Origin: an uncultured bacterium
GTDB lineage: Bacteria > Oederibacteriota > Oederibacteriia > Oederibacteriales > Oederibacteriaceae
Reading direction: 5' to 3'
Assembly: GCA_965112635.1 (NCBI GenBank)
Contig: OZ218778.1
Coordinates: 1,845,807-1,909,806, forward strand
DNA length: 64,000 nt
Shown one piece after another: positions 8,433-63,373 of the stretch (position 1 is its first letter; every line of letters starts with the position of its first letter). The position numbers and the translations under genes are program-made. The notes below the pieces were generated by a model. That model saw nothing but the letters and a program-made list of their open reading frames with translations, was not told the origin of the DNA and did not search any database.

Positions 8433-10085
8433 GTGGGTAGGGTGCAAATCTTTATGGTTGGTTTGGTCATTCTGTTGATGTGGGCGCCCAATGTTTTTGG
8501 CACGGCTTTTGGAACCACGGGCCAAAATTTTCTAACCATTGGCGTTGGTGCAAGGCCGACGGCGATGGGAGGGGCTTTCGTCGGTCTAGCTGACGACCCT
8601 GATGCGATCCACTGGAACCCAGCTGGTTTGATTAATCTTGAAGACTATGAAATTTCCCTGATGCATAGCGCTCTCATCGGAGACGTCAGCTATGATACCG
8701 TTTCCTACGCCCAGCCCATAGCTGTTGATTATGGTTATATTGGAGCCGGCATTGCCTATTTAGGTGTCCCCCCGTTTGATAATACCGTTGGTCGCGAAAA
8801 CTCGATCTCTGCCCATAATTTCCTGTTAGACATTGCCTATGCGAATCGATTGAGCGATATGTTTGATATAGGCAATCCAATCGGCCGGCGTTTAAGTTTG
8901 GGACTAGGTATAAAATGGATCAATTTTTCGATCGATAACTTGGTGAGTTATAATGACGTGGCCTTCGATGTTGGCACCTATTTCATCACTCCCTGGGAAC
9001 CGTTAACTCTGGGCGCGAGTTTGCAAAATTTAGGTATTTCTCTGGACCCTGCCGCTGTTTCAGACCCACTGCCTTTGACCTTTAGATGCGGAGCGTGTGT
9101 CCACATTGCAGACCTATCTATGCAGCTTGACCTGATCCAGCAAGTGGATAATGACGCCGTGATAGGATGGGGAACAGAATATAATTTCCAGGATTTATTG
9201 TTCCTAAGGGGTGGTTATGCGATTGGCGGGCCTTCTCTAAACGGGTTGTCCGGGATAACATGCGGTGCCGGATGGAGGATGAGGTCCTTTGAGTTTGATT
9301 ATACCTTTGTACCTATGGGGGAGTTGGGCGCCACCCACCGTTTTTCTCTTAACGTTTCCTTTGAACAGGAGCTCAAAGAATTACGTAAGAATCTGGCCGT
9401 GGAATCCAAAGACAAGGTCCAAAAAGATGAAATCATTGCTTTATATAAGAAGGGCAATGAATTCTATTATCAGGGGAACTACACTCAAGCTTTGGATGCC
9501 TGGCAGCAGATCCTGATCGTGGACCCGAAAAATCAAAAAGCGCAGGAAAGAATCACTTTTACCACGAACCTTTTGAACAAGAAGTTCACGGAAAACGAAG
9601 CAACGCAGTATTATGAACAGGGAATGAGTGATTATTCGGCTGGTGACTACGAAAAGGCTTTGGAACAATGGGCTAGTGTCCAAAAGATAGTTCCCGATTA
9701 CTTGAATATAAAGGAGATGATAAGTAAGGCAGAGGCGAAGTTGGCTGAAAAGAGAGTCGACAGGGCTGGAGTGGGTCCTTTGCTTGAAGCTGCTCGTACT
9801 TCCTATAAACAAGGGCAACTGCTGGATGCCGTCAAAGATTGGAGAAAAGTTTTAGAAGCAAATCCTCAAAATCAGGAAGCCCTGAAGTCGTTAAAGGATG
9901 CTAATGCGGAGATTTTAAACTTGGCAAAGAAAACCTATGATAAGGGGTTAGAATTTTACACCAATGGGGATTACGATAATGCCATTGCCACCTGGAAAAA
10001 TGTGGTAATACTTCAGCCTGATCACCCAACCGTATTGGGTGATATTGAGAGAGCCCAGAAAGAGGTAAATTCGTTGAAAAAATAA
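8433..10085 (+). CDS. FadL/TodX/PorV-family outer-membrane beta-barrel fused to a C-terminal ~240-aa TPR-like extension
   Basis: N-terminal signal peptide. FadL-family N-motif GARPTAMGGAFVGLADDPDAIHWNPAGL. Barrel ends with a beta-signal-like FSLNVSF, followed by four or more TPR-like repeats (YYQGNYTQALDAWQQILIVDPKN..., YEKALEQW..., WRKVLEANPQN..., YDNAIATWKNVVILQPDH). The start may be GTG 8433/8442 or ATG 8454. Confidence 0.65.
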   Translation: MGRVQIFMVGLVILLMWAPNVFGTAFGTTGQNFLTIGVGARPTAMGGAFVGLADDPDAIHWNPAGLINLEDYEISLMHSALIGDVSYDTVSYAQPIAVDYGYIGAGIAYLGVPPFDNTVGRENSISAHNFLLDIAYANRLSDMFDIGNPIGRRLSLGLGIKWINFSIDNLVSYNDVAFDVGTYFITPWEPLTLGASLQNLGISLDPAAVSDPLPLTFRCGACVHIADLSMQLDLIQQVDNDAVIGWGTEYNFQDLLFLRGGYAIGGPSLNGLSGITCGAGWRMRSFEFDYTFVPMGELGATHRFSLNVSFEQELKELRKNLAVESKDKVQKDEIIALYKKGNEFYYQGNYTQALDAWQQILIVDPKNQKAQERITFTTNLLNKKFTENEATQYYEQGMSDYSAGDYEKALEQWASVQKIVPDYLNIKEMISKAEAKLAEKRVDRAGVGPLLEAARTSYKQGQLLDAVKDWRKVLEANPQNQEALKSLKDANAEILNLAKKTYDKGLEFYTNGDYDNAIATWKNVVILQPDHPTVLGDIERAQKEVNSLKK

Positions 10086-37912: not shown

Positions 37913-39079
37913 ATGTTCCCAGGGAAACGACGAATCATCGCCTTGTTGGTGGTCTTTGGGGCCGTTGCGGGTTGGTCGGCAGTCCATGCTCAGACGAATA
38001 CTGCGACCAATACGGATACTGACACTGAGACGGCTACTGCAACCGCAACTCCCTCCGCTTCCGCGACAACCACCATGACTCTTACAGTCACCCCAACTCC
38101 CACGGCTTATTTATCCCTTATGAAGGTTGTGACGCCCAGCGGGGTTATCCTTCTTCCCGCGACTACCCAGACCCCAGTCACTTTTACCATCAGCTATTCC
38201 AATACGGGAGGCGAAGTTCTGACCAATGTGATGATTTGGGATACGCTTAATACCGGTTTGTGCTACCTGACCACCACGGCAGGGGCAGCCCTGACCGCCG
38301 ACAGCGTCATTTCTTGCACTTCAGGTTCTTTCCTGGTCTGGAACGCGCCATCTCCTCTAGTTCCCGGGAGCAGCGGCAATATTGTTTTTTCAGCCCTAAT
38401 TAATAATGTGCCCTATTACACCAATATAACTAATTTTGCGCTGGCCGGAGCCGACCAGCTAGCCAGCCCCGTGACCTCCACGACCACCAGTTCAATAATT
38501 ATTTATACCCTTCCTCAGGCGGGGAGCGCTCCTCCTACCTTTGTGTTGAATAATTTGTCCCTGCAGTTATCTTGGACCCCCGGCATAGCTGGAAGTTATC
38601 CTATAGCGGGATATCCTGTTTGGCGCAGCGCTGACGGTGGCTTTTCCTACTCGCAAATCACTTTGACCGGAAGCAGCATTACCAGTTGCACCGACCAACT
38701 TCCCGCAGTCCAAACGTTTATTTACCTCGTGAAGGTGATGGATACCCTGGGCAATGAAGTCGCTTATCCGCCTCTTGTCCTTAAACCTTTGCCGGTCAGC
38801 ATGGCACTGGACCACAACAGTTTTAATCCAGCCAAGGGCGGAACCTTGAACGTCAAATATCACCTCAGACAGCTCGGCAGTGTGTCCATCTACATCTATA
38901 ACCTCAGGGGAAATCTGGTCAGGAAATTGGTGGATGACACGGAGACTTTCGGGGAACATGTGGCCCAGTGGGACGGAAAGAACGGACAAGGAGATACAGT
39001 CAGCAGCGGGGTTTATTTGTTCCATTTAGAAGCCGCGGGAGGGGATGCCGTGAACCAGAGAGTGGCGGTCATCAAGTGA
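37913..39079 (+). CDS. Secreted cargo protein: short TxT stalk, DUF11-like and Fn3-like domains, FlgD-Ig/CTD-like C-terminus
   Basis: MFPGKRRIIALLVVFGAVAGWSAVHA signal peptide, then TNTATNTDTDTETATATATPSASATTT. C-terminus NSFNPAKGGTLNVKYHL..VSIYIYNLRGNLVRKLVD...AQWDGKNGQGDTVSSGVYLFHLEA. Its stop TGA 39077-39079 overlaps the ATG of the next gene. Confidence 0.7.
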   Translation: MFPGKRRIIALLVVFGAVAGWSAVHAQTNTATNTDTDTETATATATPSASATTTMTLTVTPTPTAYLSLMKVVTPSGVILLPATTQTPVTFTISYSNTGGEVLTNVMIWDTLNTGLCYLTTTAGAALTADSVISCTSGSFLVWNAPSPLVPGSSGNIVFSALINNVPYYTNITNFALAGADQLASPVTSTTTSSIIIYTLPQAGSAPPTFVLNNLSLQLSWTPGIAGSYPIAGYPVWRSADGGFSYSQITLTGSSITSCTDQLPAVQTFIYLVKVMDTLGNEVAYPPLVLKPLPVSMALDHNSFNPAKGGTLNVKYHLRQLGSVSIYIYNLRGNLVRKLVDDTETFGEHVAQWDGKNGQGDTVSSGVYLFHLEAAGGDAVNQRVAVIK

Positions 39080-40059
39080 TGGATAATTTCTTTCACCCAG
39101 GAAAATGCAGGAAGATCAATCCCGTGATCTTTGCTTGCTTATTTGTATTGTTCCCAACTTTTTTTATTGGGGTCTTTCCCAGCTTGAGCTGGGGCGGGGG
39201 AGCAGGAACAACTGGCGCTGATATTATGGCAGAGGAGTTGGGGGCCAGGCCCAGGGGCATGGGAGGCGCTTATGGGGCTGTGGCCAATGACGCCAATGCC
39301 GTAGATTATAATCCAGCGGGATTAACTCAGATCCTAAGGTCCAATGCTACCCTAACCCACTGGATCGAATTGGACGGCACGACCCTTGATTTCATTAGCT
39401 ATGTTTTGCCCCTGGGAGCCATGGGGACCGTGGCGGGCAGTGCGACCCTCCGTCAAGTCCCTTCCATCAGCAATACGACCGCTGAACCGTCAGTCAATGT
39501 GGACGATATTCTGGTGGGTCTATCCGGGGCAACAAAACTGGAGAATTGGTGGCCTGGTTTGTCGGGCGGAATGTCCTTAAAATTTGTCAGCTCCACCCTG
39601 GGAAACTATACGGCTTATACGGGAGCCCTTGACGCAGGGGTCCTCTTGGAGGACCTGCCCTACCATTCCAAGGCGGCTTTGGCCATGGAAAATTTAGGTA
39701 TGCCTATCAAATACATTGATGTGGCCGACCCCCTTCCGTTTTGCTTAAGGTTGGCCGGCTGCAGTCAGATCTTTGAAGATAGCGTCAAGGAGCTATTAGT
39801 AGCCGCTGATCTCGTTCAACCAATCAATGGCTACGCCAACTTGGACATCGGGGCTGAATTCATTTACCTCGGGTTCGTAGCTTTCAGGGGAGGTTATACC
39901 TTGGATTTTCAGGAAGGAACAAGGGGGCTCGTGGGCGGCCTTGGGATCAAGTATGTTTGGGATAAGACCGATTACAGACTGGATTATGCCTACAACCCTT
40001 TTTACTGGAAAAATAGTTACACGCCCACCCATCTGATCTCTCTGTCCGTATTCTTTTAA
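39079..40059 (+). CDS. FadL/TodX/PorV-family outer-membrane beta-barrel (cargo-adjacent paralog)
   Basis: Signal peptide, GARPRGMGGAYGAVANDANAVDYNPAGL N-motif, C-terminal beta-signal ...LISLSVFF. ATG 39079 shares its A with the upstream stop (TGATG). Confidence 0.65.
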   Translation: MDNFFHPGKCRKINPVIFACLFVLFPTFFIGVFPSLSWGGGAGTTGADIMAEELGARPRGMGGAYGAVANDANAVDYNPAGLTQILRSNATLTHWIELDGTTLDFISYVLPLGAMGTVAGSATLRQVPSISNTTAEPSVNVDDILVGLSGATKLENWWPGLSGGMSLKFVSSTLGNYTAYTGALDAGVLLEDLPYHSKAALAMENLGMPIKYIDVADPLPFCLRLAGCSQIFEDSVKELLVAADLVQPINGYANLDIGAEFIYLGFVAFRGGYTLDFQEGTRGLVGGLGIKYVWDKTDYRLDYAYNPFYWKNSYTPTHLISLSVFF

Positions 40060-42935: not shown

Positions 42936-42957
42936 CCGCCCTAAAGGGCGGTGTTTT
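42936..42957 (+). terminator. Terminator-like hairpin (ccgccc-UAAA-gggcgg + tgttttc)
   Basis: Seen in sequence directly after the stop at 42929. Confidence 0.5.
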
Positions 42958-43013
42958 CATAAGGAGGAGATATCTTGTTTGTTCCTCCTCGCTACGCTCG
43001 GGCTGCCGTTTAT

Positions 43014-43040
43014 CCCCGGCCTAAAGGCCGGGGTTTTCTC
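43014..43040 (+). terminator. Second, stronger terminator-like hairpin (ccccggcc-UAAA-ggccgggg + ttttctc); near-duplicate of the first
   Basis: 8-bp GC stem, identical UAAA loop, U-rich tail. Confidence 0.55.
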
Positions 43041-43175
43041 GGCAGTAGTCATAAAACCGGCTTAAAATATTTCGTTGGTTTTGATGCAGAGGGCAAAAGC
43101 GTTTAGTGGCTAGTTCCAAGCAGGAGGCATTCTACGCAGTCGGAAACCGTCTGGGCGCGAGCTTGCAGGATCTCA

Positions 43176-45146
43176 TTGGGTTTAGTCTTATTATTATGCC
43201 CGCTTTTCTTTTGGCTTCAATGCGAAGACGCTTTTAACCTTCCCAAGCAGACCCTGTTGTATCTATTGCTGTTGCTCTCTTTGATCTTCTGGTGGACTAA
43301 ATCCGTGGAGTCTCGATTATTCTGGTATCCCCGGCATCTTGTACAGATCGTCCTGCTGGGCTGGCTGGCCTGCGGGATTTTGTCTGTTTTAGTGAACGGC
43401 TCCTCCGTCCTTGGCTGGGCCGCGTGGATCGAATGGCTGGCGCTCGTTGTTCTTTTTATTCTGGTCTTTGGCAGCATCGAGAACGACAGTCATCTCAATA
43501 TGTATTTTTCCCTGGCTTTAATTGCCTCAGGGTTGTATGGAGTTTATGGTTTTTTGCAATTTTTCGGAATAGACGTGATCCATTGGTCTTCCCTGGGCGC
43601 AGGCAGGATCTATTCGACCCTTGGGAATCCTGACCAATTAGCGGGCCAAATCGCTTTGGTTCTGCCCCTTGTCGCGATCTTTTTTGTTTTAGGCATCAAG
43701 CGTCTTTGGACCCTTCCCCTTTTTATGGTCCTGATTTGCGTCCTGTTCTTTACTCAATCCAAATCGGGACTTTTAGCCTCCTTTATCTCTTTCCTCCTCC
43801 TGGTCGTTGGAGTTCTGGTGTTCATGGGGCGGGCGGTTCTTCGGGAGCATCGGATCCAGGTGGTCACCTTGGTGGTAGTTTTTTTTGCCATAGCTTTTGC
43901 CAGCTTCATGGTTTCTCCTGGCAAAACTTCTCCCTCTTTGCCAACTTCCTTGTTCGATCTTAAACAAAGCTCTGCGTCGATCCGTATTTTTATCTGGAAA
44001 GGGGCGGTCCGGTTGATCGCAGAGTCCCCCCTTATAGGTCGTGGATTGGGGAGTTTTCAGGCGCTTAACCCCAGAGAGCAGGCGCAGGTCTGGCAGAGCG
44101 GAGGTTATGAAAGAACGGGGATCGATGTCCACGATGAGGCCTATGCGCATAATGATTATCTTCAGATGGCTGCTGAAGGGGGCCTGCTAACCCTGGTATT
44201 TTTCCTCGCATTTTTTATACTTATTTTCTCTAACGGGTTCAGCTATTTAAAAAAAGAAACCTTGCGCAACCGCCAGGGGGTCGTGTTGGCCTTAATGGCA
44301 GGATTGGCAGGGTTCCTTACTTTTGCGTTCTTTAATTTTCCGCTTAAGATGCCTTCTGTGGCGGCCACGGCGTTTGCTTGGGGCGCGATCTTGTGCCGTT
44401 ATGACGGTATTTTCGCTTCCGGCCGGGTCGTTGGCCTTGCCAAAGGAATTTTGGTCCATCCTTCCTTGAAAAAAGCGCTTGAGTCTTTGGGGGCCGTGGT
44501 ATTGCTTGCGCTGATGGTCTTTGTTTTCCAGGGATTTTTGGGCGGAGTTTTCTTTAAGTCGGGATTGCGGGCCATTGAAGCCCATAGGTCCCAAGATGCT
44601 TTGCCGTATTTGGATAGAGCCCTCAATTGTAATCCCTATAATATATCTTGCCTGTTCTATGACGCTTTAGCCTGGGAGGAGAGCGGTAACTGGCAGGAGG
44701 CCGTAAAACAATATAAGGCGACCTTGGCCCTTTATCCTTATTCCATGGGCGCTTGCTATAATCTAGCCAATCTGGAAAAAAGAGCAGGACGATATCAAGA
44801 AGCCGAGGAGTATTATTTAAGAGCCCTGGCTATCAAGCCGAACTATACCGACGCTTTGAACAATTTAGGGGCACTTTACTACCTTTGGGGGTCGAGCTTG
44901 AGGGACCCCTCCCTTAAATTGCAGGCCCAGCTTTATTACCAAAAAGCGGAGTTGCAATACGCCAAGGCCTTGCAGTACAGACCGGATTTTGTGGAAGCGC
45001 ATTTTAATTTGGGCGTTATTTACCTTGCGCTGGATGAAAAGGCGGGAGCAGAAAAAGAGTTGAAGCGTGTTCTGGAACTCGACCCGAATTATGACATGGC
45101 CAAGACCATTCTGAACAAGCTCAAGAAGAAGAAATCGAAGAAATAA
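43176..45146 (+). CDS. O-antigen-ligase (Wzy_C)-family polytopic membrane protein with C-terminal TPR repeats; candidate O-oligosaccharyltransferase
   Basis: More than 10 predicted TM helices. Wzy_C signature periplasmic loop (...DVHDEAYAHNDYLQMAAEGGLLTLVFFLAFF). C-terminal TPR repeats (AHRSQDALPYLDRALNCNPYN..., WQEAVKQYKATLALYPY..., YQEAEEYYLRALAIKPNY..., VEAHFNLGVIYL). Apparent TTG start. Confidence 0.65.
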   Translation: MGLVLLLCPLFFWLQCEDAFNLPKQTLLYLLLLLSLIFWWTKSVESRLFWYPRHLVQIVLLGWLACGILSVLVNGSSVLGWAAWIEWLALVVLFILVFGSIENDSHLNMYFSLALIASGLYGVYGFLQFFGIDVIHWSSLGAGRIYSTLGNPDQLAGQIALVLPLVAIFFVLGIKRLWTLPLFMVLICVLFFTQSKSGLLASFISFLLLVVGVLVFMGRAVLREHRIQVVTLVVVFFAIAFASFMVSPGKTSPSLPTSLFDLKQSSASIRIFIWKGAVRLIAESPLIGRGLGSFQALNPREQAQVWQSGGYERTGIDVHDEAYAHNDYLQMAAEGGLLTLVFFLAFFILIFSNGFSYLKKETLRNRQGVVLALMAGLAGFLTFAFFNFPLKMPSVAATAFAWGAILCRYDGIFASGRVVGLAKGILVHPSLKKALESLGAVVLLALMVFVFQGFLGGVFFKSGLRAIEAHRSQDALPYLDRALNCNPYNISCLFYDALAWEESGNWQEAVKQYKATLALYPYSMGACYNLANLEKRAGRYQEAEEYYLRALAIKPNYTDALNNLGALYYLWGSSLRDPSLKLQAQLYYQKAELQYAKALQYRPDFVEAHFNLGVIYLALDEKAGAEKELKRVLELDPNYDMAKTILNKLKKKKSKK

Positions 45147-49783: not shown

Positions 49784-51199
49784 TCACTGGTCGACCATTT
49801 CCGTGACTTCGAGGACTTCCGACAAGGTGGTTACGCCGCTCAAAATCTTTTGGACACCGTCTTCGAACATCGTGACCATGCCGTTTTTGATGGATTCCTC
49901 TTTGATCTTGGAAGCCGTCTCTTTTTCCACCACCAGTTTCCTGATACCTTCGTTCATCTCCAGCAATTCCGAAATGACGGTCCGGCCGCGGAATCCAGTA
50001 TTGAAGCAGTTGCGGCATCCCGGAGCATAAAAGATCTTGTGAGGGGTATGGCCAGTCACTAAAAAGGCTTTTTTGTCATCCTCGGTGGGGACCGTCTCTT
50101 TTTTGCAACGCAAACACAATGTCCTGACCAGACGTTGGCTGATGACCGCGCGCAGGGAGCTGGCGATCAGGTAAGGAGGAACTCCCATTTCCACCAGTCG
50201 CACCACGGCCGATGGGGCGTCGTTGGTGTGAATGGTGGAGAAAACCAGGTGGCCGGTCAAAGAGGCCCGAATGGCGATCTCCGCGGTTTCCAGGTCCCTG
50301 ATCTCGCCGACCAAAATGATATCCGGGTCCTGGCGAAGGATGGACCTCAAGGCGTAAGTGAAGTTGAGCCCGATTTCGCTGTGCATCTGTATCTGCGTAA
50401 CGCCTTCGATCTCGTATTCCACGGGATCCTCCACGGTCGTGATGTTCTTAGTGCCCGTGTTGAGGGCCTGCAGGGCGCTATAGAGGGTCGTGGTCTTGCC
50501 GCTGCCCGTAGGGCCGCTCATCAGGATGATGCCATAGGTCTTGCGGATGATCCGCTTCAGGGCGTTCAACATATGAGGATTAAAACCGATATTATCCAAA
50601 CCCACGACCAAAACCCCTTTATCCAAGATACGCAGGACGACTTTTTCCCCGTTGATGGTCGGTGTGACGGCCACCCGGAAGTCTATTTCGCGGTTCTCCA
50701 CTTTGATATGAAAACTGCCGTCCTGGGGCATGCGGCGTTCCATGATATCGAGCTTGGACATGACCTTGATCCTCGAGACAACGCTCGGCGCCAAGGCCAG
50801 CGGCAAGGTCTGCGCGGGCTGCAGGACCCCGTCCACTCGATAGAACACCTTTAAAAATGTTTTGGTCGGGATGATATGGATGTCGCTGGCCCGTCGTAAA
50901 AAGGCTTCCAAAAGGATCAGGTTAACCGACTTGACCACCGTGCTTTTTTCGTTCTCTTCCTGGACCGAGGCGGAAGGCACGGCGAGGTTGTCTATCTCGA
51001 TCCCCAGCCTTTTGGTCAGCGTCACGCCTTTGTCCACCGCCGTGTTCAACATATGCTGGACGATGCTGACCTTGTAATGGTCTTGATATTCCATGAGTTT
51101 TTTCAGGATCTCACCGCGGGAGCCCATGGCCGCTTCAACCGGCCCCTGCAGGATGGCCTGGAGACGGTCCACCGTGTCCATATCCATGGGGTTTTCCAT
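49784..51199 (-). CDS. gspE: Type II secretion / type IV pilus assembly ATPase GspE/PilB family, ATPase and C-terminal Zn-finger portion
   Basis: Walker A GPTGSGKTTTLYS, Asp box, Walker B, His box, tetracysteine CLRCKK...CRNC. The N-terminal GSPII_E_N domain is missing from this ORF and found in the overlapping upstream ORF 51135..51509. Confidence 0.8.
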   Translation of the reverse strand: MENPMDMDTVDRLQAILQGPVEAAMGSRGEILKKLMEYQDHYKVSIVQHMLNTAVDKGVTLTKRLGIEIDNLAVPSASVQEENEKSTVVKSVNLILLEAFLRRASDIHIIPTKTFLKVFYRVDGVLQPAQTLPLALAPSVVSRIKVMSKLDIMERRMPQDGSFHIKVENREIDFRVAVTPTINGEKVVLRILDKGVLVVGLDNIGFNPHMLNALKRIIRKTYGIILMSGPTGSGKTTTLYSALQALNTGTKNITTVEDPVEYEIEGVTQIQMHSEIGLNFTYALRSILRQDPDIILVGEIRDLETAEIAIRASLTGHLVFSTIHTNDAPSAVVRLVEMGVPPYLIASSLRAVISQRLVRTLCLRCKKETVPTEDDKKAFLVTGHTPHKIFYAPGCRNCFNTGFRGRTVISELLEMNEGIRKLVVEKETASKIKEESIKNGMVTMFEDGVQKILSGVTTLSEVLEVTEMVDQ

Positions 51200-51509
51200 G
51201 GCTGACTATGGTGGTATTGTTCTTTTTCTCTATGGGGATCAACACCTTGCTGGAGGCCATATCCTGGGGGACCATGACCACGAGCTCCGGTTCCGGGGAC
51301 AGGTTCTCCACGTCCAGGAAGGTGATCCCCATCGTGGATGCCCTTAATTTAAGCAGCTGCAACTCCTCCAGAAGTCCCAGATGGAGCAAAGCTTCACCAA
51401 AGGGAACTTTTTGTTCTTCCTCGTAATGGTGGACTTCCTCGAGTTGCTGGGAGGTCAGGATTTTCCTGTGGATTATCTCGTTTTGCAGGGCCAGGTCCGC
51501 GGGTTTCAA
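51135..51509 (-). pseudogene. GspE/PilB N-terminal (T2SSE_N) domain fragment, out of frame with the ATPase body
   Basis: LTSQQLEEVHHYEEEQKVPFGEALLHLGLLEELQLLKL...VLIPIEKKNNTTIV matches the N1 domain; the tail HGKPHGYGHGGPSPGHPAGAG is the wrong-frame read of MENPMDMDTVDRLQ. Confidence 0.6.
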
Positions 51510-51662: not shown

Positions 51663-52583
51663 TTAGAAATCAACGGTCAAAGAAAAGCGATGGGCCTCGC
51701 CTAAACTGGCATAAGGCACAAAGGCGTAATCAAAATGATAATACATCAAACCCAGTAAAAGGGAATAGCCAAAACCCGTCGTGAACATGAAAGGCAGGGA
51801 GGTCTGCTCGATCAAGCCGAGCCTGACTGCCAGGTCCTGCGCGCCCCAACGGGAGTTGTATTCCAATCCCAGATGGATCCCCAAATCCTGGCCAATGAAA
51901 TCATAGGAGGTTTCAGCGGAGGCCAGAATATTGCGGGGTTGTTTTGTTTCTTCCTGCTGGCCGCCGATGTTTTCCATGAGTTCTCCCAAGGCGAACTTTT
52001 TAGCGATCCCTATCCTCAACAGCAAAGGCAGGGAATATCCGCCGAGCTCGGACCCGAGATTCTGCAGGGTCACGCCCAAGGAAGTTGCTTCGGCAAAAGG
52101 CCGGATGATGCCTCCCACATCAAAAGCGAAGCCGCTAAATCCCGCTCCCACAAAATCTTCGTGCAGCAGTTTAGCCGTGATGCCAGCGTGGAAGATCTTG
52201 GAAAAGGTCGTGCCATAACTTAATTCGCCGAACAAGGCTGAGAAATTGAGGCTGTCCGCGCTGGGCACGAACATGCCCGGCAAAGGGAAGGACGGGTCCG
52301 TGGGCGTCATTTCATCGGCTTTGGAAACAGGGGAGGACCCCAGACGATTAACGCAAATGCTGAGGCCGCTATGGTTGGAAAGGGGCAGGGCATAGGCCGC
52401 GCTGTCAAAACTGGTGCCCAGAAACCAGTTGATATGGGTGAAAGAAAGTTCCTGGAAGGACAGGTCGCCGAGGCCGGCCGGATTCCAATAGGTGGACAAG
52501 GTGCCGCTGGCCACGGCGCAATAGGCGTCCCCCAGACTGGACGGCCGGGAACCGGTGGCTATCAAAAACTCTTCGCCAGCCAC
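51663..52583 (-). CDS. FadL/TodX/PorV-family outer-membrane beta-barrel (cargo-cluster paralog); true N-terminus probably lies upstream (~52667)
   Basis: GSRPSSLGDAYCAVASGTLSTYWNPAGL N-motif; C-terminal ...HRFSLTVDF. The in-frame upstream sequence encodes a signal peptide (KSQAIAFLILFSILTHPLNSFAAG) with no canonical start codon. Confidence 0.65.
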   Translation of the reverse strand: MAGEEFLIATGSRPSSLGDAYCAVASGTLSTYWNPAGLGDLSFQELSFTHINWFLGTSFDSAAYALPLSNHSGLSICVNRLGSSPVSKADEMTPTDPSFPLPGMFVPSADSLNFSALFGELSYGTTFSKIFHAGITAKLLHEDFVGAGFSGFAFDVGGIIRPFAEATSLGVTLQNLGSELGGYSLPLLLRIGIAKKFALGELMENIGGQQEETKQPRNILASAETSYDFIGQDLGIHLGLEYNSRWGAQDLAVRLGLIEQTSLPFMFTTGFGYSLLLGLMYYHFDYAFVPYASLGEAHRFSLTVDF

Positions 52584-52780
52584 TGTGCCTGCCGCGAATG
52601 AATTCAGGGGATGCGTCAGAATAGAAAAAAGGATAAGGAATGCGATGGCTTGAGATTTTTGTGTCGTAGGGCTAACCTCCTAAAATATCGGGTCACTATC
52701 GGCAGAGAACCCAGGTATGGCTAGAGAATAATATTATACTACTGGTAAGAGAAGACCTGACCCAGGTTCACCATCATTCT

Positions 52781-53725
52781 TTAGAAGCTCGCTCCCAGGG
52801 ATATTCTTTGGGCATCACCCAGCTGGTCCATAGGCACAAAAGCGTAATCCAGGGCATATGCGCTGCTGCCGATTTCCAGGGCAAGCCCCACCCCGCAGCT
52901 CAGCAGCAGGTAGCTGCTGGTGGACTTGGCTATACCGCCGCGCAAGGCCAGGATGGTGCTGCCCATCTTAGGGGCCCATTCCAGGCCCAAATGAAACCCA
53001 TAGTCCTGGCTGTTCACCAGGTCGGTCAGGTCCAGGCTGGCCAGAATATCTTTGGCCGCCGTCTTATTCTCCGGGGCTAGGGCCAGCAGCTCCTCAATAT
53101 CCGTATAGCTCATCCTTTTGGCTATTCCGGCCCTGGCCATGAGGGGAAACGCAAACCCGTCCAATCCCGTGCTCATATTCTGCACAACCAGACCGGCTAT
53201 ATCCGTATCCGATAGTCTGACCTGCGCTCCCAGATCTCCTGCAAACCCGGTTGCGCTGTCGTCCAGCAGGTTTTCCTGGATACATTTGACATTGGCGCCG
53301 ACATTGAGCATGGGCAGCAGGCCCCAGCCAAACCCTATTCCGCCCATGATAGACCCTACACTGACCGTCTGGTTTGCAGGAGAGTATTGGCCGGACAAGG
53401 GGTTATCAGGGCTAGGCAATGTTTCATTGGTGACCGTGATGTCCGGGATACCCAGACGGCTTACAAACAGGCTTAACCCACTCTTTTTGCCTATGTTGAC
53501 GGCATAAGCCACAGTATCTAGGGAGATATTCTGCATCCACATCAGGTGGGTCAGGGAGATATCCTGGTATTGGAGTCTAGCCAGGCCAGCCGGGTTCCAA
53601 AAAGGGGCGAGAGCGCCGGTGACCACGGCTGTGTAGGCCTCAGCCATACCGCTGGGACGGGAACCGACCCCCAGCAACAGCTCATCGCCCGCGGTCTCTC
53701 CGGCCCCAAAGCAGTGGCTCACCAA
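52781..53725 (-). CDS. FadL/TodX/PorV-family outer-membrane beta-barrel (second paralog); true N-terminus probably lies upstream (~53785)
   Basis: GSRPSGMAEAYTAVVTGALAPFWNPAGL; C-terminal ...QRISLGASF. In-frame upstream RHYRIDKIITLICLCSLCLVSHCFGAG is a signal peptide lacking an ATG/GTG/TTG start. Confidence 0.65.
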   Translation of the reverse strand: MVSHCFGAGETAGDELLLGVGSRPSGMAEAYTAVVTGALAPFWNPAGLARLQYQDISLTHLMWMQNISLDTVAYAVNIGKKSGLSLFVSRLGIPDITVTNETLPSPDNPLSGQYSPANQTVSVGSIMGGIGFGWGLLPMLNVGANVKCIQENLLDDSATGFAGDLGAQVRLSDTDIAGLVVQNMSTGLDGFAFPLMARAGIAKRMSYTDIEELLALAPENKTAAKDILASLDLTDLVNSQDYGFHLGLEWAPKMGSTILALRGGIAKSTSSYLLLSCGVGLALEIGSSAYALDYAFVPMDQLGDAQRISLGASF

Positions 53726-53754
53726 ACACAGGGAACACAGGCAGATAAGAGTGA

Positions 53755-55992
53755 TTATCTTATCAATACGATAGTGCCGCGTGATGTCTGGCCTCCTCCT
53801 GAGACTAGGTAAAAATACACGCCTGGAGCGACTGCCTGACCGTTGTCATTGGTACCGTCCCAGGCGGCGTAGGTGGTGCTGGTGGCTATGCTTTTGACCA
53901 GCAGGGCTGACATGGTCCGTATCTCAATGGTCGAGCCAGCCGGGATATTGGCGAATTTCAGCTCATGGTTCAGGGCTGTTTTGACCCTAAAAGGATTGGG
54001 ATAGACCACCAGGCTGCCGATGCTCACCAGAGCCTTGTTGCTGGTCAGGGGGGAGTAGGGGGTTATCTGGCTGAGGATATCGTTGTAACTCATGCTAAAA
54101 GTGTTTGAAATGAACACCCCGGTTGGGTCATTGCTGTTGACCTTGGCTACAAGATTTTTGCTGACCGTGCTGTTGGGATTGACGTTGGCGATGGTCCAGC
54201 TATACAGGCCCGGCCCAAGCACGCTATATCCGCTGTCAGCGGAAACAAAGGTCATGGTGTTGGGCAGGGTGTCCCAGATAAGGACATTTTGGGCGGGACC
54301 GCCCCTGTTCTGACAGGAAAGGGTCCAGGTCACCTGGTCACCCTGGTTTGCTTTGGGAACATTGGAGGATTTGGCCAGGGTAAAGCTGGCCGGAAGAGGA
54401 GTTGGAGTATTGGTTGGAGTATAGGTGGAGGTAAAGGTATATGTGTTGGTAAAGGTCGGGCCCGCCGTGGACTCACCGGAATATTTGGTCAGGAAGCCCT
54501 GATTATCTAGGCCTTTGACCGTGTAGTAGTAAAAGGTACTTGTACAGGCATTAGTGGCGGTGGAGTCGGTATAAGTAGTGCCACCCACTAAAGAACCGTT
54601 GATCTGTGCATAGCCAGTTCCCTCGGTCGTACTACGGTAAACATTGTAGCCTGAGATGCCGAAGGTGGAGATGGGGGGAGCAGACCAGGTGAGAGATACA
54701 GTAGAAGGACAAGTAATGGTGGCAACCAGACCAGAGGGAGGAACCAAGGTGCCCATGGCATTATAGAAGTTGATGCGGCCGTAGCCCAGGTACTGATTCC
54801 AGCCATTAGCATCATAGGCATGATCGGCGGCATCGACCTTATCCGCGGTTTTGGTGATGCGGGTGGAGACTTCATCATAGGACACGCCGTTGGACATTAG
54901 GACAGCGGCCAGGGCACAAACATAGGGACACGACATGGATGTGCCGCCCCAGTTTGCGTATGCGGAAGGTCCTCCGATTTCAGTGGTCAAATCGCCTCCC
55001 GGGGCAGCGCATATGACATAAGAGCTATAGGTGGAATAGGTTGCCCATTCATCATGGCTTCCCGAGGCGGCTATAGCGAAAGCTATGCCATCTGAGGCAG
55101 GATAAATGAGTTCATAGGTTCCGCTATCCCCTGACGCGGCCATTGCAATATGATGGTCGGTGGAATAGGCATTGCTTATGGCTGTATCAACGCCGGAAGC
55201 GCTCACAAAACCCCAGCTGCAATTAAAGACCTGCGCGCCGTGCTGGGAGGCCCAGTCGATTCCCGCGATAGCGTTGGCCGCTGTCGCGTCCGTCCAATTG
55301 GTCGTGATTTTTACAGGCATGATCAGGCAATTCCAAGCCATGCCCGCTATACCCGTACTATTATTAACTTCTGCTCCCAGTAGTCCTGAGATCTCAGTGC
55401 CATGACCATGGATATCCGTAGTATCAGAACTATTGGAGATCACATTCCAACCCGGGACAATTTTATCCATCAGGTCCACGTGACTGGAATTTATTCCGGA
55501 ATCAATCACAGCAACCACGGTGGAGGTTAACCCTTTGGCCCAGGGCATCATGGCGGGAGTGTTCCAAGCTTTGTCTGTTTGGGTGATAGGAATCGGCCAC
55601 AAGACTCCGCTCTGGTAATAGGTATCGTTGGGAAGGGAGTAGGGGGTATAGGCCGGATGGGCGTAATAATTAGGATAGGCGTTTTTGATCTTAATATGTT
55701 TTTTCGCCTTCCCAGCATAGTCCAGAACATTTTTACCATGGGGTATTTTTAGGTGATAGATATCCAATCTGCCCAGTTTTTTTATAACTTCACAGCCTAA
55801 TTCTTTGGCAATGGCACGCGCTTCTGATTCGGGGACTTTTCCTTTTTCAAATTCAATTATTATCTCCCCTTCCACGTAATCAGGTTTTTCTCCGGCATAA
55901 AGGGGGTGTAATAAAAAGGGGATTATCAAGAAAACAGCCAAAAAAATATACGATATTATTATTCCCAATAGTATGTATTTTTTCATTGGCAA
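53755..55992 (-). CDS. Secreted subtilisin-like serine protease (S8) with Fn3/DUF11-like domains, TxT linker and FlgD-Ig/CTD-like C-terminus
   Basis: Catalytic triad contexts VAVIDSGINSSHVDL (Asp), HGHGTEISGLLGA (His), GTSMSCPYV (Ser); N-terminal propeptide; TFTNTYTFTSTYTPTNTPTP linker; C-terminus VVYPNPFRVK..STIEIRTMSALLVKSI..AWDGTNDNGQAVAPGVYFYLV. Confidence 0.85.
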   Translation of the reverse strand: MPMKKYILLGIIISYIFLAVFLIIPFLLHPLYAGEKPDYVEGEIIIEFEKGKVPESEARAIAKELGCEVIKKLGRLDIYHLKIPHGKNVLDYAGKAKKHIKIKNAYPNYYAHPAYTPYSLPNDTYYQSGVLWPIPITQTDKAWNTPAMMPWAKGLTSTVVAVIDSGINSSHVDLMDKIVPGWNVISNSSDTTDIHGHGTEISGLLGAEVNNSTGIAGMAWNCLIMPVKITTNWTDATAANAIAGIDWASQHGAQVFNCSWGFVSASGVDTAISNAYSTDHHIAMAASGDSGTYELIYPASDGIAFAIAASGSHDEWATYSTYSSYVICAAPGGDLTTEIGGPSAYANWGGTSMSCPYVCALAAVLMSNGVSYDEVSTRITKTADKVDAADHAYDANGWNQYLGYGRINFYNAMGTLVPPSGLVATITCPSTVSLTWSAPPISTFGISGYNVYRSTTEGTGYAQINGSLVGGTTYTDSTATNACTSTFYYYTVKGLDNQGFLTKYSGESTAGPTFTNTYTFTSTYTPTNTPTPLPASFTLAKSSNVPKANQGDQVTWTLSCQNRGGPAQNVLIWDTLPNTMTFVSADSGYSVLGPGLYSWTIANVNPNSTVSKNLVAKVNSNDPTGVFISNTFSMSYNDILSQITPYSPLTSNKALVSIGSLVVYPNPFRVKTALNHELKFANIPAGSTIEIRTMSALLVKSIATSTTYAAWDGTNDNGQAVAPGVYFYLVSGGGQTSRGTIVLIR

Positions 55993-59809: not shown

Positions 59810-62800
59810 TTATCTTATAATGATCACTTTGGTTATTGTTCTGTAGTTCGCAGCAGGGGTGTCCGCCTCCACGGCTGCCAGATACAAACCAGCGGACATC
59901 TTCCCCACATTCCAAGGGATGGCCAGCGTCCCGGACCCCGCAGCGGTGAGGGTCATGATCAAGTTGCCTGCCACATTGTAAATATTGATCCTGATGCTGG
60001 CTGCCTGATTGATATCCACCTTGAAATAAATGGTCTGCGACCCCATCTCCCGATAGGGATTGGGATACGCTTTGGCGTCAAACCCGGGGTTGGAGGAGGA
60101 GACCAGCACCGTGATGCTCTTGGAATAGGTCACGATCCTGCCATTGTAAACCTGGTCGGCCTTGAGGATGTATTCGCCGTTCTGCACCAGGTTCCCCAAG
60201 CTGTTAGTGCCGTCCCAAAGGATGCGGCCGGGGGCCAGAGTCCCGTTGCTGTCGGAGAGATAAAGGCCGTTATCCCCCAACGCGCCCACTCCAACCGTCG
60301 TGTTCTGTCCGGGGCCGGTCAGCAATAAGTTATTGGTCAAGGATATGCCTTCCAGCTGGCCCGAAGTGCTATATCCCTGGTAGATCTCCTTCACCAGCTC
60401 TCCGGAAGTCGTGTAAATGTCCACTTTTAGATGGTTGCCCAAGCTGGTCACTATCACGCTGTTCGTAAAGGTAGTGGCTTTGCCGAACTGCGTCACTTGG
60501 GATTTCAGGATATAGTCTCCGGGCTGCACCATGGCTCCCAGATCGTTGGTCCCGTCCCAGGGGATTTGCCATTGGCCTTTTTTGGTGGTCAGGAGGATCT
60601 CCAGCGGCACTCCGGAATCCTCCATCAGGGAGCCCGACCCGCCCAGCGTAATGGTGAGGTCGCTCAAATCGCCGAAGATCGGAACCCATCCAAGGGTCTT
60701 GACCACCTCGCCGTTGGTCGCGTAGATCACCAGGTCCACATTGAGCACAGGCGGCGTTATCGTTGGCGTGCAGGAGCTGGTCAGGGTCTTGCTCGGGGTG
60801 ACCGTATTGGTCCAGGTCAAAGTCTGGGTGGGCGAAAAGGGAGGAGTGGAGGTGTTGCTGGGCGTAGAAGTGCAGCTGGGCGTGGCAGTATTGCTGGCGG
60901 TCCCGGTATTGGTGAAGGTATAGGAAAAGGTCTTGGTCAAAGTGACGGTATTGGTCAAAGAAGAGGTAATGGTCAAAGAGGGGGTCTGGGTGCTGGAAGG
61001 GGTGTTGGTGATTGAGTAAGTGGGTGTGTAGGTGGTCGTGAGAGTGATGGTCTGGGTATTGCTTTGCGTTATCGTGGCCGAGCCTGTAGGGCTGGCGGTC
61101 AAGGTTGCTGTGACGGTGGACGTGTTGATGAAGGTGAAAGTCGCCGAAGCTGAGGGGCTGACGGTCAAGGTTGCCGTGGGGGTGGGAGTGTTGGTGGAGG
61201 TGTAAGTCGCCGAAGCTGAGGGACTGACGGTCAAAGTTGCTGTGGTCGTAAATGTATTGGTGGCCGTATAGGTTCCGGAGGCGGTAGGGCTGGCGGTAAC
61301 CGTGTAGGTATTGGTGGACGTGAAGAGGTTCGTGTAGGTTGCCGTGAGGGATGGGCTGGAGGTCAGGGTAGCTGAACTGGTGGCTGTGTTAGTGGCCGTG
61401 TTGGTGCTGGTGGCAGACGGGCTGACGGTCATCGTGGTCGTGCTGGTGCCTGTAATGGTGGCCGTGCTGGTGTCGGTGGCAGAGGGGCTGACGGTCATCG
61501 TGGCCGTGCTGGTGGCCGTGTTGGTGGCCGTGCGGGTACTGGTGGCAGAGGGGCTGACGGTCATCGTGGCCGTGGCGGTGGCTGTAATGGTGGCCGTGCT
61601 GGTGCTGGTGGCAGAGGGGCTGACGGTCATCGTGGCCGTGGCGGTGGCCGAGTTGGTAGAGGTGCGTGTGCTGGAGGCTGTCGGGCTGACCGTGGCTGTT
61701 GCGCTGGACGTGGAAGTTGAAGTGATGGTGTTGGTAATGGTGGAAGTGCAGGTGCTGCTGCCGGTCGGACTAGCCGTGGCGGTGGTCGTAATCGTGGGTG
61801 TGCATGTTGAAGTGCTGGTAGATGTGGCCGTATCGGTCGCGGTTGAGGTGCTGGTGTTTGTCGGGGCGCAATAAAGAGCCACTTGCGCGTCATTGGATGT
61901 AGTAGCCACTAAACCCGTGCCCTGGAGAGTACCGGTATTGTCGAGAAGGCCGGGACAGGCGGTCGTGGTCACCATAGCGGCAAAACCAAAAGGCGGAACA
62001 GAGGGCAGGTAGTATTTCACCACCACTTCGCAACTATCCACCGCCGAAGCGTCGGCTGGGCCGCTGACCGTGTTGTAGTAGCTGACGCGCAGGTTGTTCA
62101 GGTCAGCCCAGGTCCAGTTCGTATCCGCGGTGGCATCATAATAGCCGTCATCGGTGTTTCCATCAAAAGTTTCGCGCATAATATCAGCGGGAGCTCCGAG
62201 AAAGCCGTTGTTGGTCCCATCCATGGAATAGTTGAAATACAAGGGGTTGACTAATCCGTCGCCACCGTTAACGCCCTGTATTGTGCTGTGGAACATAACT
62301 CCGGCGATCACATATTGGTTCTGGTTCACCACGCCGGAGGGGCCGATTTGGAACCATCCCGTGTTGCCTGGAGTGAGGGTCGCAAAATTGCCGTCAGGGG
62401 CCCCTATGGTATTACCGGGGTTGGTCCATCCTGGAGCGTTAATGACAGAGGAAATATACTGGTCAGCGTAGTTGAAGGTCACCGAACCTGAGAGCGTGAA
62501 TGTCCAGGAGACCAGGTTGGTCACGGGGTTATAGGTTCCCCCGCCTGTCGCTGAAACAAAGGCCATGCCCGCCGGCACGGTGTCATAGACCGTGACCGTG
62601 CTGGCATCTTCGTCAAAGGAACCCATGGTGAAGGTGTAATTGACCGTACCGCCGGTAGCGGAAACGGTCACATCAGAGGCTTTGCTCAGGTCAATGTCAG
62701 AGCCTGGAAAGAAGAAATACTCCCTGTATAAATTCATATCACCGCAGTTATTATTAATAAGCCCCCATGCGCTTGGTCCGTTCCCCAGGTAGGGCACATA

Positions 62801-63373
62801 ACTATAGGGAACATTAGGCGGAGCAGGCATTATATAATACATCCACTGTCCTATGCCTGGCGTATCGTCAATAGGTGTGCCCCAGGTTGAATCATCAAAA
62901 CCCGGCATCATCCAATTGGCAGGCGGAACCGCCAGCTGACCGGCGCAGCCGCCGGGTGGATTTGTGCAACCACAACCTCCGGGAACATACAAAAATTTTA
63001 CGTTGGCGTCAGGATTGCTATAAATGACCACTGTGGGGGCGTCTGAATAATGGACAGTCAAGCGAAAAGTCACGGTCTGCGGACCGGAAGTATTGGGCGG
63101 ATTGTCAACAGCAATGAGGTTTGTTTGGTTGGGAAGGAAGTCGTGCAAGTCAAGAGTACCGTCCGCGGTGGAATAACTAGTGATTTGGTCAAAGTTCCAA
63201 CCAGTTGTCCCGCCATGAATTCCGTTAATGTAAAAATCTGCGTGGTCGTCTCCGGCTATTTCCAGGTCAGCTGAAACAATGTAGGCAATTGTTTGGCGGG
63301 GAACAAACAGTGATAGCAAACATAGAAAAATAATTTTCTTAAAAAATCTTTCTAGTACCTTTTGTTTAAGCAT
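59810..63373 (-). CDS. Large cargo protein (1,187 aa), paralog of 56088..59744: novel N-terminal head, DUF11-like segment, ~350-aa S/T-alternating stalk with 22-aa tandem repeats, three tandem FlgD-Ig/CTD-like domains
   Basis: Signal peptide MLKQKVLERFFKKIIFLCLLSLFVP. TVYDTVPAGMAFVSA (DUF11-like). Stalk ...TMTVSPSATSTSTATITATATA x4. C-terminal triple domain (VIYATNGEVV..WDGTNDLGAMVQPGDYIL; VDIYTTSGELV..WDGTNSLGNLVQNGEYIL; YPNPYREM..INIYNVAGNLI..WNVGKMSAGLYLAAVEA). Confidence 0.75.
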   Translation of the reverse strand: MLKQKVLERFFKKIIFLCLLSLFVPRQTIAYIVSADLEIAGDDHADFYINGIHGGTTGWNFDQITSYSTADGTLDLHDFLPNQTNLIAVDNPPNTSGPQTVTFRLTVHYSDAPTVVIYSNPDANVKFLYVPGGCGCTNPPGGCAGQLAVPPANWMMPGFDDSTWGTPIDDTPGIGQWMYYIMPAPPNVPYSYVPYLGNGPSAWGLINNNCGDMNLYREYFFFPGSDIDLSKASDVTVSATGGTVNYTFTMGSFDEDASTVTVYDTVPAGMAFVSATGGGTYNPVTNLVSWTFTLSGSVTFNYADQYISSVINAPGWTNPGNTIGAPDGNFATLTPGNTGWFQIGPSGVVNQNQYVIAGVMFHSTIQGVNGGDGLVNPLYFNYSMDGTNNGFLGAPADIMRETFDGNTDDGYYDATADTNWTWADLNNLRVSYYNTVSGPADASAVDSCEVVVKYYLPSVPPFGFAAMVTTTACPGLLDNTGTLQGTGLVATTSNDAQVALYCAPTNTSTSTATDTATSTSTSTCTPTITTTATASPTGSSTCTSTITNTITSTSTSSATATVSPTASSTRTSTNSATATATMTVSPSATSTSTATITATATATMTVSPSATSTRTATNTATSTATMTVSPSATDTSTATITGTSTTTMTVSPSATSTNTATNTATSSATLTSSPSLTATYTNLFTSTNTYTVTASPTASGTYTATNTFTTTATLTVSPSASATYTSTNTPTPTATLTVSPSASATFTFINTSTVTATLTASPTGSATITQSNTQTITLTTTYTPTYSITNTPSSTQTPSLTITSSLTNTVTLTKTFSYTFTNTGTASNTATPSCTSTPSNTSTPPFSPTQTLTWTNTVTPSKTLTSSCTPTITPPVLNVDLVIYATNGEVVKTLGWVPIFGDLSDLTITLGGSGSLMEDSGVPLEILLTTKKGQWQIPWDGTNDLGAMVQPGDYILKSQVTQFGKATTFTNSVIVTSLGNHLKVDIYTTSGELVKEIYQGYSTSGQLEGISLTNNLLLTGPGQNTTVGVGALGDNGLYLSDSNGTLAPGRILWDGTNSLGNLVQNGEYILKADQVYNGRIVTYSKSITVLVSSSNPGFDAKAYPNPYREMGSQTIYFKVDINQAASIRINIYNVAGNLIMTLTAAGSGTLAIPWNVGKMSAGLYLAAVEADTPAANYRTITKVIIIR
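61413..61690 (-). repeat. Tandem 66-bp (22-codon) repeats, about 4.2 copies, inside the stalk of 59810..63373
   Basis: Units begin gcagaggggctgacggtcatcgtggccgtg... at 61413, 61479, 61545, 61611 (plus-strand coordinates, antisense to the gene). Confidence 0.8.

Follow-up and report, generated by a model that had tools for sequence, protein, structure and literature searches.

Candidate ACG start codons behind perfect Shine-Dalgarno sequences at three envelope-protein genes of one bacterial genome

In the stretch of DNA analysed here (the window, 64,000 nt of a 2.87-Mb NCBI contig), a gene for an outer-membrane beta-barrel of the PorV/PorQ family (paralogue 2) had a signal peptide and a perfect Shine-Dalgarno sequence (SD) at its 5' end, and an ACG where its start codon was to be expected (Table 1). 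The same arrangement was found at two other genes of the window, encoding a second PorV paralogue (paralogue 1) and a Wzy_C/TPR membrane protein. Taking layout and homologues together, we consider it reasonably probable that ACG 52667-52665 is a genuine, weak initiation codon of the barrel gene, aided by a maximal SD, and the uncultivated host bacterium probably starts translation at ACG, a codon outside the accepted bacterial start list. As the same layout occurs at three genes, ACG looks like a start codon of deliberately low strength that some envelope genes of this lineage use repeatedly, rather than like damage to a single gene.

The barrel gene lies on the minus strand, and its public call starts at GTG 52583-52581, giving a protein of 306 aa (P0001). 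Read directly on the minus strand, the same frame stayed open for 32 codons upstream of this GTG and was ended by a TAG (52682-52680) that shares bases with the AGGAGGT at 52681-52675 (T-AGGAGGT). The in-frame ACG follows 8 nt past AGGAGG (7 nt past AGGAGGT) in the context cctACGaca and is the sole near-cognate codon at SD spacing; no ATG, GTG or TTG was found in any frame from 52584 to 52695, the nearest being an out-of-frame GTG at 52696. The peptide from the ACG reads (T/M)TQKSQAIAFLILFSILTHPLNSFA|AGTVAGEEF, with one Lys ahead of the hydrophobic core, Ser/Ala at -3 and -1 and a maximum 10-residue Kyte-Doolittle hydropathy of 3.15, whereas the N-terminus from GTG 52583 reaches 1.27, which corresponds to no signal peptide, and no SD precedes that GTG. 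The ORF comprises 334 codons and has no other stop or frameshift. An earlier, sequence-only reading of this DNA had already claimed the textbook signal peptide, the ACG as the only codon at proper spacing and a region of roughly 100 nt devoid of canonical starts, all of which we confirmed; it had counted 31 open codons, one too few, back to the correct TAG, and had set the SD immediately after that TAG, which the SD in fact overlaps. It had also pointed to a TATAAT upstream, which is present (52738-52733) and weaker as promoter evidence than was implied, having no -35 partner and being one of 26 copies in the window on both strands. It had overlooked that the neighbouring PorV paralogue lacks a canonical start as well.

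Table 1. Features of the three proposed ACG-initiated genes, in window coordinates (SD, Shine-Dalgarno sequence)
Feature	Position	Strand	Basis or remark
TATAAT, -10-like hexamer	52733..52738	minus	In the 113-nt spacer between the two PorV paralogues; weak
In-frame TAG closing the frame	52680..52682	minus	Overlaps the SD
SD AGGAGGT (perfect AGGAGG)	52675..52681	minus	One of 6 perfect-SD gene starts in the window
ACG, proposed initiation codon of PorV paralogue 2	52665..52667	minus	SD spacing, alignment to the Met of P0002, three assemblies
Signal-peptide coding region, 25 codons, (M)TQKSQAIAFLILFSILTHPLNSFA	52593..52667	minus	Alignment with P0002 and P0003, hydropathy, model helix; predicted cleavage before AGTVAGEEF
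GTG, start of the public call (P0001)	52581..52583	minus	Most likely codes for Val inside the conserved AGTVAGEEF
Mature PorV/PorQ-family outer-membrane beta-barrel	51663..52592	minus	NCBIfam, AlphaFold2 and PDB matches; C-terminus ...SLTVDF, then stop codon
AGGAGGAGG, SD of PorV paralogue 1	53792..53800	minus	Inside the 3' end of the S8 protease gene
ATC-ACG, proposed start of PorV paralogue 1	53780..53785	minus	ACG 53782-53780 at 9 nt from the SD
Remainder of PorV paralogue 1, to the stop codon	52781..53779	minus	NCBIfam PorV_fam, 92.9 bits (cut-off 90); 35% identity with paralogue 2
AGGAGG, SD of the Wzy_C/TPR gene	43122..43127	plus	Read from the sequence
ACG, proposed start of the Wzy_C/TPR gene	43134..43136	plus	6 nt after the SD; N-termini of homologues
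Remainder of the Wzy_C (O-antigen-ligase-like) and TPR gene	43137..45146	plus	Pfam families on public gene calls, translation

Several other routes into the open frame were considered and rejected. Frameshifting from a small ORF (GTG 52696, 26 codons in another frame, over a T6 run) failed because GTG 52696 lacks an SD, and because the core AIAFLILF, which aligns with the signal peptides of the homologues, is encoded in the main frame before the T run is reached. Read-through of the TAG was discarded as the spacer holds no in-frame canonical start further upstream, and ATC 52646 or other in-frame near-cognates as these are at least 29 nt away from the SD and, used as starts, would cost the signal peptide its N-terminal region. 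The TATAAT was dismissed as part of a real sigma-70 promoter for want of a -35, and a promoter scan returned 0 sites. The leader RNA was not unusually structured, folding no better than shuffled sequence (z = +1.1), and a search of Rfam gave nothing beyond one tRNA and one insignificant match; on these two results a regulatory RNA in the leader was also rejected.

Two homologues locate the start of the barrel gene upstream of the public call. P0002, a paralogue encoded ~23 kb away on the same contig (54% identical), starts with ATG and reads MINSIKTIAAALALALIAVEAQA-AGTVAGEEF, and P0003, a relative on a JGI metagenome contig (sample 3300005529; 42% identical), likewise starts with ATG and reads M...FAFLLLTFNLGHA-AGTVAGEEF. 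The AAGT directly before GTG 52583 is conserved in both as AAGTVAGEEF, both have a signal peptide, and ACG 52667 of the window aligned opposite the Met of P0002. Because the AAGT is conserved and both homologues have an ATG and a signal peptide, translation must begin upstream of GTG 52583. Among PorV-family loci of other lineages, 113 of 114 had a canonical start 12-70 codons before the mature N-terminus. The sole exception (JGI contig Ga0257143_1001926, ~141-725) had no canonical start before its predicted mature N-terminus and an in-frame stop 3 codons upstream, and may be a projection artefact. A search of 5.8 billion proteins, together with GTDB genomes and JGI metagenomes, returned only the one paralogue and the one 42%-identical relative, and the scans of GTDB genomes and JGI metagenomes gave only homologues of at most 36% identity. 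ATG is the start in the nearest homologues, and the collections searched yielded no orthologue in which the ACG is conserved, which is explained by a lineage that has no close relatives; the ACG is conserved only across three assemblies of the same organism. Synteny-based retrieval of orthologues was impossible, as the flanking PilB-like ATPase had no public relative above 56% identity.

The barrel is a member of the PorV/PorQ family but no identified orthologue of PorV, PorQ or PorV2. It exceeded the 90-bit cut-off of NCBIfam PorV_fam (NF033709) at 101.6 bits, residues 35-334 covering profile positions 8-326 of 326, and scored 16.9 vs 250, 42 vs 220 and 43.2 vs 325 bits against the cut-offs of the equivalogs NF033710, NF033711 and NF052325 (T9SS PorV, PorQ and PorV2). 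An AlphaFold2 model built with 57 homologues (pLDDT 90.2, pTM 0.84) had an N-terminal helix at residues 3-17, followed by a beta-barrel, and its best Foldseek matches in the PDB were 8gl6_F (E = 2.5e-12) and 6h3i_F (E = 6.9e-11), each chain F of a T9SS translocon structure, and then FadL. Of the features for outer-membrane targeting, the C-terminal aromatic residue (...SLTVDF) is present in any case and the Sec signal peptide only with the ACG start. The gene is the last in a minus-strand row in which three proteins that have a T9SS-like C-terminal domain (CLIPPER/DUF11, FG-GAP and S8 protease) are encoded upstream, followed by the two PorV paralogues. The likeness to the T9SS shuttle PorV, with its FadL-like fold, thus lies in the family score, the top PDB matches and the T9SS-CTD-like tails of the neighbours; unlike T9SS PorV, PorQ and PorV2, the barrel falls far below the equivalog cut-offs, and neither SprA, PorU nor other core T9SS genes were identified in the window. 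The PilB-like ATPase follows downstream, its best matches (53-56% identical) coming from Elusimicrobia and unclassified bacteria, and judged by these matches the host lineage is not Bacteroidota-like.

Five PorV/PorQ-family barrel genes were counted within ~90 kb of this genome (window 8442-10085, 39079-40059, 51663-52667 and 52781-53782, and 6001-6999 of L001, part of an 18-kb extension), each with neighbouring genes whose products end in FlgD_ig/Por_Secre_tail-like C-termini. Starts and signal peptides were normal in the window's other two PorV paralogues. The minus-strand gene at 59810..63373, encoding a CLIPPER/DUF11 protein of 1187 aa with a T9SS-like C-terminal domain, carried tandem 66-bp (22-residue) repeats at 61089-61743, in 4-5 copies of 85-88% identity, and a very large open frame on the plus strand (1-7974, >2,657 codons) extended past the left end of the window.

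In PorV paralogue 1 (52781-53782, minus strand), the first canonical start, TTG 53725, leaves only MVSHCFG ahead of the mature AGETAGDELL, that is, no signal peptide (maximum hydropathy 1.45), whereas translation from ACG 53782 gives MRHYRIDKIITLICLCSLCLVSHCFG|AGE with a hydropathy of 3.06. The adjacent ATC (53785-53783), 6 nt from the SD, is an alternative start for this paralogue. Its ORF of 333 codons has no other stop or frameshift, its start context is atcACGcgg, and the S8 protease gene shares its last 28 nt with the SD and start of this paralogue. The third gene, encoding the Wzy_C/TPR protein on the plus strand, had no canonical start from the upstream stop to TTG 43176, which lies 14 codons further in than the ACG and falls within the first transmembrane helix (TM1). 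Five distant homologues, when aligned, start 13-25 residues before an invariant Pro-Leu (PL motif); the ACG start places 22 residues before the motif and the TTG start 8, with loss of the basic residue before TM1. At all three genes, the N-termini of homologues thus favour the upstream start. A weak AGGA core is found a few nt upstream of TTG 43176, which could serve as a start too. The ORF (670 codons, start context tctACGcag) was again free of any other stop or frameshift. The 200-nt spacer that precedes this gene has, at 42936-43031 on the plus strand, a AAGGAGGAG...CTCCTCCT hairpin flanked by two terminator-like hairpins of nearly the same sequence, CCGCCCTAAAGGGCGG and CCGGCCTAAAGGCCGG, both of which run into a T-rich tail; the number of such hairpin matches expected by chance is zero, and a Logan contig of this genome ends inside the second hairpin.

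We evaluated how often a perfect SD is paired with ACG by scanning the whole window for AGGAGG 5-9 nt before an in-frame codon at the 5' end of ORFs of at least 150 codons. Seven sites passed: three canonical starts (ATG 17036, TTG 25083 and ATG 40908), three in-frame ACG codons at 6-9 nt and one spurious antisense ORF. ACG thus stood at 3/6 of the perfect-AGGAGG gene starts and at 3/3 of the perfect-SD gene 5' ends that lacked a canonical start. ACG accounts for 1.2% of trinucleotides in the window, and an in-frame ACG at 5-9 nt is expected at ~0.02 of sites; its presence at all three such ends, against an expectation of ~2%, is more than chance. The SD was complete (6/6) at all three ACG sites vs at most 3 of ~44 canonical gene starts, and no further ACG, ATT, ATC, ATA or CTG candidates were found in the window, also when 4-nt SD cores were allowed. 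A tendency of weaker start codons to come with stronger, compensating SDs has been reported by Belinky et al. (PMC5622118); the confinement of ACG to perfect-SD genes fits it and is what selection for such compensation would produce. No further case of SD and ACG was found in an extra 18 kb of the same genome (L001 and L054), which brought the coverage to 82 kb of 2.87 Mb in total.

All three ACGs were identical in the window, in ENA contig_40024 and in contigs of the Logan assembly ERR11523656, though the assemblies may share reads. The ENA contig matched window positions 41662-62583 with 0 mismatches and 1 gap; Logan contigs L004 and L135 together span all three sites, L004 differing from the window by one SNP and the same gap. 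The SNP at 54759 (G in the window, C in L004) changes Ala to Pro in the S8 protease. A C at 51204 in the window, outside any homopolymer (CATAGT[C]AGCC), is absent from the ENA and Logan assemblies; it may reflect an assembly error or a real variant, and it splits a 574-aa PilB-like ATPase (MshEN and T2SSE) into ORFs 51135..51509 and 49784..51199. Exact matching to 15 billion public proteins gave only the truncated gene calls and no full-length protein of an ATG allele.

Initiation at ACG would require no component beyond those of ordinary bacterial translation. We postulate that the perfect, optimally spaced SD docks the 30S subunit so as to place the ACG in the P site, where initiator fMet-tRNA would pair with it at positions 1 and 3 and be mismatched at position 2. 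Near-cognate initiation of this kind is opposed by IF3, so output would be low and possibly dependent on the level of IF3. The precursor, beginning with Met and carrying a 25-residue Sec signal peptide, would then be made at a low rate, exported by Sec and cut after ...NSFA. A low, fidelity-sensitive output would plausibly suit parts of the envelope that do harm in excess or of which little is required. In E. coli, ACG can initiate with an N-terminal Met at 0.1-1% of the AUG level (bioRxiv 10.1101/063800), and the start codons listed for 34 well-annotated genomes do not include it. If the E. coli figure applied, output at no more than 1% of AUG may be too little for a structural outer-membrane protein. 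Our literature search for a native bacterial gene initiated at ACG found none.

The alternative that survives best, to which we assign a small but real probability, is that the three ACGs are start-loss alleles, former ATGs altered by T-to-C changes, and that the genes, now silent or near-silent, are off-state alleles or pseudogenes of recent origin. Transitions from T to C are common, only two transition products of ATG are no longer canonical starts, ACG being one of them, and ATG-to-ACG is an accepted and routinely used bacterial start knock-out. P0002 and P0003 both have ATG, with the ACG aligned to the Met of P0002, and the frameshift in the PilB-like ATPase of the window's assembly could hint at decay of the locus. 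However, this reading needs three lesions among ~45 genes whose ORFs of 334, 333 and 670 codons are otherwise undamaged, and all three on genes with a perfect SD, a rarity among canonical starts that random loss does not predict; the ATPase frameshift is missing from the other two assemblies, and the barrel still models at pLDDT 90. The sequence-only reading had held that orthologues with a normal ATG would mark the codon as a lesion. The homologues do start with ATG, but the comparison was too simple a guide: three genes show the layout, every one of them with a perfect SD, and this speaks against a lesion. Among the options that it had listed, non-canonical initiation is the best supported, given the conserved AAGT and signal peptide upstream of the GTG and the ACG at SD spacing.

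Of comparably low probability is a stronger version of ACG initiation, in which ACG would be a regular, efficient start in a deep-branching lineage through dedicated machinery, such as a second initiator tRNA with a CGU anticodon, a relaxed IF3 or C-to-U editing. If this were true, every standard gene caller would miss or truncate some percent of the genes (3 of ~45 in the window). A variant initiator tRNA was looked for and rejected: tRNA-Gly(CCC) was the only tRNA in the window, and the 18-kb extension added one doubtful 97-nt tRNA-Lys call.

A systematic sequencing or base-calling error, by which a true ATG was miscalled with the same T-to-C change in all assemblies (e.g., through modified bases in long reads), is decidedly unlikely. 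Contig names such as contig_40024 and the one non-homopolymer indel are compatible with what we infer to be a long-read metagenome assembly, and the three assemblies may derive from one read set. On the other side, the sites share no motif beyond Y-ACG, and the SD-ACG spacings of 8, 9 and 6 nt leave no fixed bipartite methylation motif; CATG, TATG, CTATG and TCATG are undepleted in the window (366, 311, 99 and 86 occurrences), and nearby perfect-SD starts, e.g., aacATGata, were called normally. The errors would need to strike exactly three start codons, and the independent Logan assembly differs from the window elsewhere, not at the three ACGs. The one-off C/T error that had also been put forward for the barrel gene is disfavoured in the same way, since three assemblies agree and the pairing of SD and ACG recurs at two other genes.

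Correction at the RNA level, the C of ACG being deaminated to U in the mRNA to give AUG as in plant organelles, would explain why ACG alone among near-cognate codons was found, and we regard it as very unlikely. To our knowledge, C-to-U mRNA editing has not been described in bacteria. Neither a deaminase gene nor a PPR/DYW-like one was detected in the 64 kb of the window or in the 18-kb extension, the three sites had no cis-element in common and the leader had no conserved structure, and direct near-cognate initiation requires no extra machinery. The least probable reading is that the public annotation is right, with starts at GTG 52583, TTG 53725 and TTG 43176 as chosen by gene callers (the last with its weak AGGA) and non-coding open frames upstream, as it would put the barrel start at an SD-less GTG inside the conserved AGTVAGEEF with a conserved AAGT before it, would leave two barrels of a family in which 113/114 members have a signal peptide with none, and would cost the Wzy protein half of TM1.

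Public gene callers disallow ACG, and all three proteins are consequently cut to the next TTG or GTG. Every public call is thereby mis-annotated under ACG initiation, two outer-membrane barrels being left without a signal peptide and one membrane protein with half of its first helix missing. If ACG initiation holds, ACG would enter the natural start repertoire of bacteria, from which it is now excluded by NCBI table 11 and all common gene finders, and ATG-to-ACG "start knock-outs" would not be safely silent in every organism. The recurrent pairing of the weakest kind of start with the strongest SD suggests a deliberate low-expression design for envelope proteins, possibly dependent on the level of IF3, and offers a testable handle on how strictly start codons are discriminated outside model bacteria.

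Three known systems bear comparison with the proposed ACG starts. Plant-organelle editing depends on PPR-type factors. As at the edited starts of ndhD and psbL, the genes described here combine a genomic ACG where homologues have ATG with intact reading frames and bacterial-type translation; unlike in plant organelles, PPR-type factors were not found in the window, and we know of no such editing in free-living bacteria. Start-creating ACG-to-AUG editing is well known from chloroplasts and plant mitochondria (e.g., PMC9845219 and PMC12548569).

Closer to the preferred reading, initiation at a weak ACG, are the near-cognate starts discriminated against by IF3. The infC gene of E. coli starts with AUU, a near-cognate codon of this kind, and Sussman, Simons and Simons are said to have defined in 1996 a weak set of AUU, AUC, AUA, CUG and ACG against which IF3 discriminates. 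The proposed ACG starts resemble these in their one-base mismatch to the initiator anticodon, in their dependence on an SD and in an output that would be low. They differ from the native near-cognates known so far (AUU, AUC, AUA and CUG) in the codon itself, in occurring at three genes and in always having a maximal SD, and from infC in that no regulatory logic resembling its autoregulation is evident at the ACG genes. Near-cognate initiation at AUU, AUC, AUA and CUG is thus already known, and what is new, as we believe with moderate confidence, would be SD-guided native initiation at ACG recurring within one genome. Native ACG starts do occur in eukaryotic viruses, namely in Sendai virus C' and AAV VP2 (as cited in PMC9845219). 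As proposed here for the three envelope genes, the ACG in those viruses is a deliberate weak start that sets a low protein level; unlike the viral starts, which are reached by scanning and depend on Kozak context, the ACGs of this bacterium would be selected by guidance from the SD.
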